From: Escherichia coli
GTDB lineage: Bacteria > Pseudomonadota > Gammaproteobacteria > Enterobacterales > Enterobacteriaceae
NCBI RefSeq assembly: GCF_003334785.1
Contig: NZ_QOWV01000083.1
Direction: 5' to 3' (one strand)
DNA: 557 nucleotides
Every line of letters starts with the position of its first letter. Positions within the stretch are counted from its first letter, which is position 1. This document shows, in pieces, positions 1 through 557 of the stretch. The notes under the pieces are model-generated. The model saw only the letters and a program-made list of their open reading frames with translations, did no database searches and had not been told where the DNA came from. The translations under genes and the position numbers were made by a program.

Positions 1-557
1 CACCGTATTGACGCTTATTTATTGGTGAGTACTACGTTCCATGGCAGGAGTTCGTCAACACGGTTGGAGGGCCATTCCGGCAGTACGCTCAGAATATGGC
101 GCAGATACGCTTCCGGATCGATACCGTTCAGACGGCAGGTGCCGATCAGCCCGTACAGCAGTGCTCCACGCTCGCCGCCGTGATCGCTACCGAAGAACAC
201 GTAATTTTTCTTTCCGAGACAGACTGCACGAAGCGCTCTTTCCGCTGTGTTATTGTCCACCTCCGCCAGACCGTCATCACTGTAATAACAGAGGGCGTCC
301 CACTGATTCAGTACATAGCTGAACGCTTCGCCCAGTCTGGATTTTTTCGACAGCGTGCCATTCTTCTCCACCATCCATTCATGCAGCGACGTCAGTAACG
401 CTTTGCTTCGCTGCTGCCTGGCTGCAAGACGCTCTGACTCTGGTAATCCCCGTATTTCATCCTCGATGGCGTACAGTTCACTGATTCGCTTCAGGGCTTC
501 TTCTGCCGTCGCACTTTTGCTGCTGATGTATACATCGTGGATTTTTCGCCGGGCATG
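1..557 (-). mobile_element. Internal fragment of an IS66-family insertion sequence (3' part of the transposase gene plus 14 nt of downstream sequence); element ends not in window
   Basis: Inference from the transposase CDS filling the window. No terminal inverted repeat, target-site duplication or the upstream tnpA/tnpB-type ORFs can be seen within 557 bp, so the element boundaries and the specific IS name cannot be assigned. Confidence 0.8.
15..557 (-). CDS. tnpC: IS66-family transposase (TnpC/orf3-type), C-terminal portion; 5'-partial because the frame runs off the right edge of the window; stop codon TAA at 15..17
   Basis: Seen in sequence: my hand translation of the minus strand in the same frame as the 15..374 ORF stays open from 557 to 375 with no stop, giving HARRKIHDVYISSKSATAEEALKRISELYAIEDEIRGLPESERLAARQQRSKALLTSLHEWM joined directly to the track ORF (MVEKNGTLSKK...DNNTAERALRAVCLGKKNYVFFGSDHGGERGALLYGLIGTCRLNGIDPEAYLRHILSVLPEWPSNRVDELLPWNVVLTNK*). 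Established knowledge, recalled from memory and not database-verified: the HARR(K/R) motif, the NN-AER-LR ... K-N-LF-GS--GGER block, the LNG-DP--YL segment and the LLPWN C-terminal tail are hallmark conserved segments of IS66-family transposases such as IS66 and ISEc8-like elements. The symbol tnpC is the conventional name for this ORF type, not a specific element assignment. Confidence 0.9.
   Translation of the reverse strand, partial: HARRKIHDVYISSKSATAEEALKRISELYAIEDEIRGLPESERLAARQQRSKALLTSLHEWMVEKNGTLSKKSRLGEAFSYVLNQWDALCYYSDDGLAEVDNNTAERALRAVCLGKKNYVFFGSDHGGERGALLYGLIGTCRLNGIDPEAYLRHILSVLPEWPSNRVDELLPWNVVLTNK

Follow-up and report, generated by a model that had tools for sequence, protein, structure and literature searches.

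What does a 557-nucleotide stretch of an Escherichia coli contig encode, and is anything in it left over once the obvious gene is accounted for? We analysed this stretch, hereafter the window, over its whole length. A reading made beforehand from the letters of the DNA (the sequence-only reading) had taken it for a fragment of an IS66-family mobile element, and this is borne out both by IS66 transposase profiles and by 100% DNA identity to annotated genes. We put the probability at about 97% that the window is a fragment of a known IS66-family insertion sequence (IS) of the ISEc47/ISEc23 type. Its content is the tail of tnpC together with a few bases of terminal repeat, from an element that is very common in E. 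coli and already known, and its function is only that of a part of tnpC and an element end. None of the tests run gave evidence contradicting the IS66 reading.

Only one reading frame is open across the window. It lies on the minus strand and comprises 181 codons, from position 557 down to 15, with a TAA stop at 15–17; the gene runs on past position 557. Its product within the window, 180 residues long, starts with HARRKIHDV... at its N-terminal end and finishes with ...LLPWNVVLTNK at its C-terminal end. The features of the window are as follows, L001 being the complete reference element, L002 a plasmid copy and L003 a copy of ISEc23, all three presented below.
1 to 14, no strand assigned: non-coding IS end region, positions 17–30 from the tnpC-side tip (the window starts at L001 4001, the tip is at L001 3985).
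15 to 17, minus strand: tnpC stop codon TAA; the CDS annotations of L001, L002 and L003 stop at this same place.
18 to 557, minus strand: tnpC, 3' third (final 180 codons), residues 358–537 of the 537-aa IS66-family DDE transposase TnpC, from translation, Pfam/NCBIfam, 100% DNA identity and third-codon-position bias against six relatives.
39 to 149, minus strand: Pfam DDE_Tnp_IS66_C (PF13817), 'IS66 C-terminal element', model positions 2–39 of 39, E 1.6e-16.
171 to 557, minus strand: Pfam DDE_Tnp_IS66 (PF03050), C-terminal part of the catalytic domain, model positions 155–283 of 284, E 1.2e-38.
228 to 257, minus strand: DNNTAERALR motif with the candidate third DDE residue E463 (codon 240–242), from a seven-protein alignment.
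543 to 557, minus strand: HARRK, second half of the invariant CxAHARRK block, from the same alignment.

The NCBIfam model transpos_IS66 (NF033517) aligned with the fragment over profile positions 229–385 of 387 (E 3e-51, 174.7 bits). This score is slightly below the whole-protein cut-off of 180 bits because the fragment amounts to only one third of the protein; the complete TnpC (537 aa) of a window-identical copy scores 450.5 bits against the same cut-off. At the DNA level, megablast against complete E. coli genomes showed all 557 of the 557 bases to be 100% identical to many genes annotated as 'IS66-like element ISEc47 family transposase', located in chromosomes as well as plasmids. The identity of the best database matches had been proposed as a check; these are IS66-family transposases, with no other family among them. 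The by-eye estimate of roughly 50% GC has to be corrected to a measured 53.3%.

We took as a complete reference the identical copy in the chromosome of E. coli WP7-S17-ESBL-04 (NZ_AP022177, locus L001), where the window maps to 4001–4557. It carries the following genes, in L001 coordinates.
4015 to 5628, minus strand: tnpC, 537 aa, from the annotation.
5659 to 6009, minus strand: tnpB, 116 aa, matching IS66_TnpB with 119 bits (cut-off 50).
6006 to 6440, minus strand: tnpA-like gene, 144 aa, matched by two IS66 TnpA models with scores below their cut-offs.

The three genes are adjacent and lie head to tail on one strand. The element extends over 3985–6525 (2541 bp), its ends reading GTAAGCGTCAACGGAGCACCGTATTG... 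and ...ACGCTTAC; it has GTAAGCGT... terminal inverted repeats and the 8-bp target duplication GTCTTATT on both sides. When its flanks are joined with a single GTCTTATT, the resulting sequence matches many other E. coli chromosomes at 100% identity and without interruption, and this empty site fixes the boundaries of the element as well as its 8-bp duplication. The insertion splits a hypothetical-protein gene (3700–3993 and 6522–7365) located between arsC and slp; over 4300 further E. coli genomes have this gene intact. Two further checks had been suggested for the surroundings of the window, one for companion genes and one for inverted repeats with an 8-bp duplication: tnpA and tnpB are present in elements with window-identical copies, and GTAAGCG... 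repeats and the duplication were found in window-identical elements. The search for repeats had been directed to about 3 kb on either side; the repeats do exist, but the near end is a mere 16 bp outside the window and lies partly inside it.

The tnpC-side repeat enters the window at repeat position 17, so that window positions 1–9/10 (CACCGTATT/G) constitute the inner conserved box (CCGTnT) of that terminal inverted repeat. From position 17 onward, the repeat as present in the window (CACCGTATTGACG) matches the conserved inner box of six related tnpC-side ends, while the outer 16 bp (GTAAGCGTCAACGGAG) are located just outside the window, with the GTAAGCGT tip found there in the identical copies L001 and L002. 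We compared six complete elements, that is, the L001 reference and five relatives, leaving out a truncated E. marmotae copy. Their ends, 12 out of 12, begin with GTAAGCGT and share the inner CCGTnT (consensus GTAAGCGT..AG..AG.ACCGTaT), and perfect 8-bp duplications flank four of the six elements (GTCTTATT, TGCCGTTC, CGTTGAAC and TTTTAAAT).

For the comparison with related elements, one annotated copy of each was fetched, with the following identities over the window.
ISEc23: 96.1% nucleotide identity, 96.7% amino-acid identity.
E. marmotae IS66 (truncated copy): 83% nucleotide identity.
ISKox1: 79% nucleotide identity, 87% amino-acid identity.
ISKpn24: 66% nucleotide identity.
ISEc8: 64.5% nucleotide identity.
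ISEc22: 66% nucleotide identity.

Amino-acid identity over the window is 63–67% for ISKpn24, ISEc8 and ISEc22. Many genes annotated by PGAP as ISEc47 are like the window, with 100% nucleotide identity, and the reference copy has the full tnpA-tnpB-tnpC set within its 2541 bp; this three-gene layout is present in L001, L003 and L005–L008. ISEc23 (L003), an element of 2532 bp with a perfect 8-bp duplication, resembles the L001 reference in its gene order and in a tnpC-side end that is identical over 40 bp. The two are about 95% identical up to IS position 2124, whereas beyond it, in the 5' part of tnpA and the IRL, they are past detection by blastn. This divergence (L003 4609–5016 against L001 6109–6525) suggests that a module may have been exchanged at the tnpA-side end. 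ISKox1, ISKpn24, ISEc8 and ISEc22 share with the reference the gene layout, the GTAAGCGT tips, the CCGTnT box and a tnpC-side TTGACG; their TnpC proteins keep DNNxAE, FFGSDHGG and LLPW but are shorter (512–530 aa). The duplications of ISEc8 and ISEc22 are perfect over 8 bp, as in the reference. In agreement with these observations, an 8-bp target duplication and three ORFs are attributed to IS66 in a published account (PMC6778807, citing Machida 1984 and Han 2001). The Agrobacterium Ti-plasmid IS66 and IS679, the founding and best-studied members, which we compared by description only, share the three-ORF layout and the 8-bp duplication.

We surveyed the catalytic motifs in an alignment of seven TnpC proteins with identities down to 62%. 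Six blocks are invariant in the seven proteins: HxDDTPV, LQADA, CxAHARRK, DNNxAExALR, FFGSDHGG and LLPW. HxDDTPV and LQADA are located upstream of the part of TnpC encoded in the window, and the C, W and A residues of the CxAHARRK block fall just past its right edge. In the DNNxAExALR block, D458, N459, N460, A462, E463, A465, L466 and R467 are invariant in seven of seven. From what is generally established for DDE and IS66 transposases, we take HxDDTPV and LQADA to carry the two aspartates, and DNNxAE the glutamate, of the DDE triad. With this assignment, the window would encode only the last catalytic residue (E463) of the D,D,E triad, the candidate D residues lying outside it; it probably also encodes a mainly helical segment before E463 and the C-terminal element. 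The beta-clamp motifs of IS66 TnpB and TnpC (PMC3971601) fall outside the part of TnpC encoded in the window. An AlphaFold model of full-length TnpC, made with a 7-sequence alignment, had a mean pLDDT of 52.9, with the catalytic core below 50, and a PDB sequence search with the full-length protein gave no match at E≤0.1.

With gene identity, the organisation of identical and related elements, their ends and their target duplications observed in this analysis, the steps of transposition can be filled in from what is known of DDE and IS66 transposases. Full elements are units of about 2.5 kb, IRL-tnpA-tnpB-tnpC-IRR, of which the window holds the last 180 tnpC codons and the inner 9–14 bp of the tnpC-side repeat. 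TnpC would bind the GTAAGCGT...CCGTnT terminal repeats and act through an RNase-H-like D,D,E active site, of which the window presumably encodes the E in DNNxAE only. It would then cleave the ends and join them to staggered target cuts 8 bp apart, giving rise to the 8-bp duplications. Transposition would also need the accessory proteins TnpA and TnpB; in the case of IS679, all three ORFs were reportedly required.

Matches to the window occur in 4565 of 5426 complete E. coli genomes, at 13298 places in all (10807 chromosomal and 2491 on plasmids), with a median of 2 places per genome and a range of 1–42. In PLSDB, 2048 plasmids match, mostly from Escherichia, Klebsiella, Shigella and Salmonella and mostly conjugative. 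IS66-family elements had been expected to occur often on plasmids and within accessory DNA, which agrees with these counts, both the 2491 plasmid-borne places out of 13298 in E. coli and the 2048 PLSDB plasmids. The insertion sites are multiple and polymorphic, on chromosomes and plasmids alike, and for one insertion both the occupied and the empty site were seen. Ten phage records match the window as well. Several lambda-like Escherichia phages (LR595861, LR595864, OM475428, OM475430 and NC_049946) carry a 96.2% identical copy at a shared map position of about 22.7–23.6 kb. The window holds no new biology; its value is that of a marker only. It signals a mobile element present in many copies, which fragments assemblies, interrupts genes and favours recombination from copy to copy, and the DNA around the window in its source genome is probably accessory.

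Does the window contain anything else? Eight other ORFs of at least 20 aa were called mechanically, among them two on the plus strand, antisense to tnpC.
41 to 322, plus strand: antisense ORF, 93 aa, mechanical call.
96 to 398, plus strand: antisense ORF, 100 aa, mechanical call.

The sequence-only reading had counted no additional ORFs. Taken literally this fails, as eight others exist, but it stands in substance, the antisense ORFs being without a family match and broken in relatives; similarly, the statement that one gene type explains all coding capacity holds in substance, with positions 1–14 set apart as non-coding terminal repeat. The candidates 41–322, 96–398 and 22–183 were rejected as genes, having no NCBIfam match and acquiring stops in relatives. 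We regard it as highly improbable that tnpC conceals, on the plus strand, a genuine overlapping gene (41–322 or 96–398) or a structured antisense RNA. In favour of it there are the two plus-strand ORFs themselves, 93 and 100 aa long, and in ISKox1 (L005 2513–3055, equivalent to window 15–557) the plus-strand frame of ORF 96–398 is stop-free over 543 nt; this looks like chance, because the same frame has 2–4 stops in the other six elements. Against such a gene, both ORFs gain 1–5 stops in related elements and lack an NCBIfam family match, and substitutions track the codon pattern of the minus frame, with 22/13/80 at its codon positions 1/2/3 in the comparison with ISKox1 and 3/4/14 in that with ISEc23. 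The substitution pattern indicates that coding constraint is on the minus frame only, and on these sequence grounds the plus-strand ORFs are antisense artefacts. Nor does the window show a promoter-like site, an Rfam match or an excess of folding that would speak for an antisense RNA: the Rfam search of the window gave no match at E≤1, promoter- or terminator-like sites were not found in it, and folding compared with shuffles gave z-scores of -0.52 and +0.49 on the two strands. A structured RNA was rejected on account of the absent Rfam match and the z-scores near zero. No tandem repeats were found in the window, and its internal repeats are short two-copy matches at chance level; the best inverted pair (220–238/321–339) was rejected, its complementarity dropping from 16/19 to 4–7/19 in distant relatives. 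These repeat, Rfam, folding and promoter searches, all negative, agree with the earlier statement that no repeats, RNA structure or regulatory architecture are left over.

Accepting tnpC as the only gene, one may still ask whether it belongs to a mobile element, and to an intact one. A domesticated, transposase-derived host gene that no longer moves seems to us next to impossible: nothing specific supports it, the gene is multicopy in numbers that vary between genomes (1 to 42 places), copies reside not only on chromosomes but also on plasmids and phages, the elements have terminal repeats and target duplications, and the insertion is polymorphic, its site being empty in other strains. A dead copy of the same family, that is, a truncated or mosaic remnant in which tnpC is kept and tnpA and tnpB or one end are lost, is possible although we think it somewhat unlikely. 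It is favoured by L002 (E. coli plasmid NZ_CP104511, 3985–5682), which is 100% identical over the window and yet 97.2% identical to the reference over IS positions 1–1698; L002 breaks off after position 1698, beside a transposase fragment and an IS3-family element, with no tnpB annotated and both tnpA and tnpB lost. Likewise, a Tn3-family transposase gene cuts L004, another relative, after position 1713, and among the 6147 matching E. coli records only 3513 contain a place that spans 80% or more of the window. On the other side, the frame is intact in the window, and among the identical copies there are many complete elements flanked by a target duplication; the window is by itself uninformative as to intact element or remnant. 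The same copies bear on the name of the insertion sequence. PGAP assigns some of the 100%-identical copies to the 'ISEc47 family' and others, namely matches H5–H8 with L002 among them, to the 'ISEc23 family', and the variants of this IS66-family element appear to be mosaics. With apparently mosaic variants, a short window cannot name the element: the 557 of about 2541 bp fit both labels, and the window alone is insufficient to choose between ISEc47 and ISEc23.

Two short sequences at the tnpC-side end deserve a description. TTGACG (window 8–13, positions 24–29 of the tnpC-side end) is located outside the coding sequence and is found in six of six tnpC-side ends (L001, L003 and L005–L008), whereas it is not conserved at tnpA-side ends. 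It is similar to a -35 hexamer directed towards the interior of the element, for which no acceptable -10 partner was found. In the ISEc47/ISEc23 clade, the tnpC-side end also forms a perfect 10-bp palindrome, TAAGCGTCAA-N12-TTGACGCTTA (L001 3986–3995 and 4008–4017). Its inner arm corresponds to window 8–17 and overlaps the tnpC stop codon, its partner arm lies outside the window, and the predicted hairpin has about -17 kcal/mol on either strand. The palindrome is weaker in ISKox1, with two mismatches that are not compensatory, and absent in ISKpn24, ISEc8 and ISEc22. The palindrome is thus specific to the clade, and may be incidental. That it is instead a clade-specific regulatory element (an mRNA 3' stabiliser, a read-through barrier or a second transposase-binding site) and not a by-product of the inverted repeat is, in our estimate, quite improbable.

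The surroundings of two plasmid copies differ from those of the reference insertion. The ISKox1 copy L005 (K. pneumoniae plasmid NZ_CP088996) has a second copy of the same IS end, 68 bp long (2424–2491), directly outside its tnpC-side tip and is without matching 8-bp flanks, an arrangement suggesting that it inserted into another copy or recombined with one. The ISKpn24 copy L006 (K. pneumoniae plasmid NZ_CP155648, 2484–4937) likewise lacks matching 8-bp flanks, as would fit recombination between copies, and an Hhe anti-phage gene is annotated some 370 bp away from it (5310–5563).
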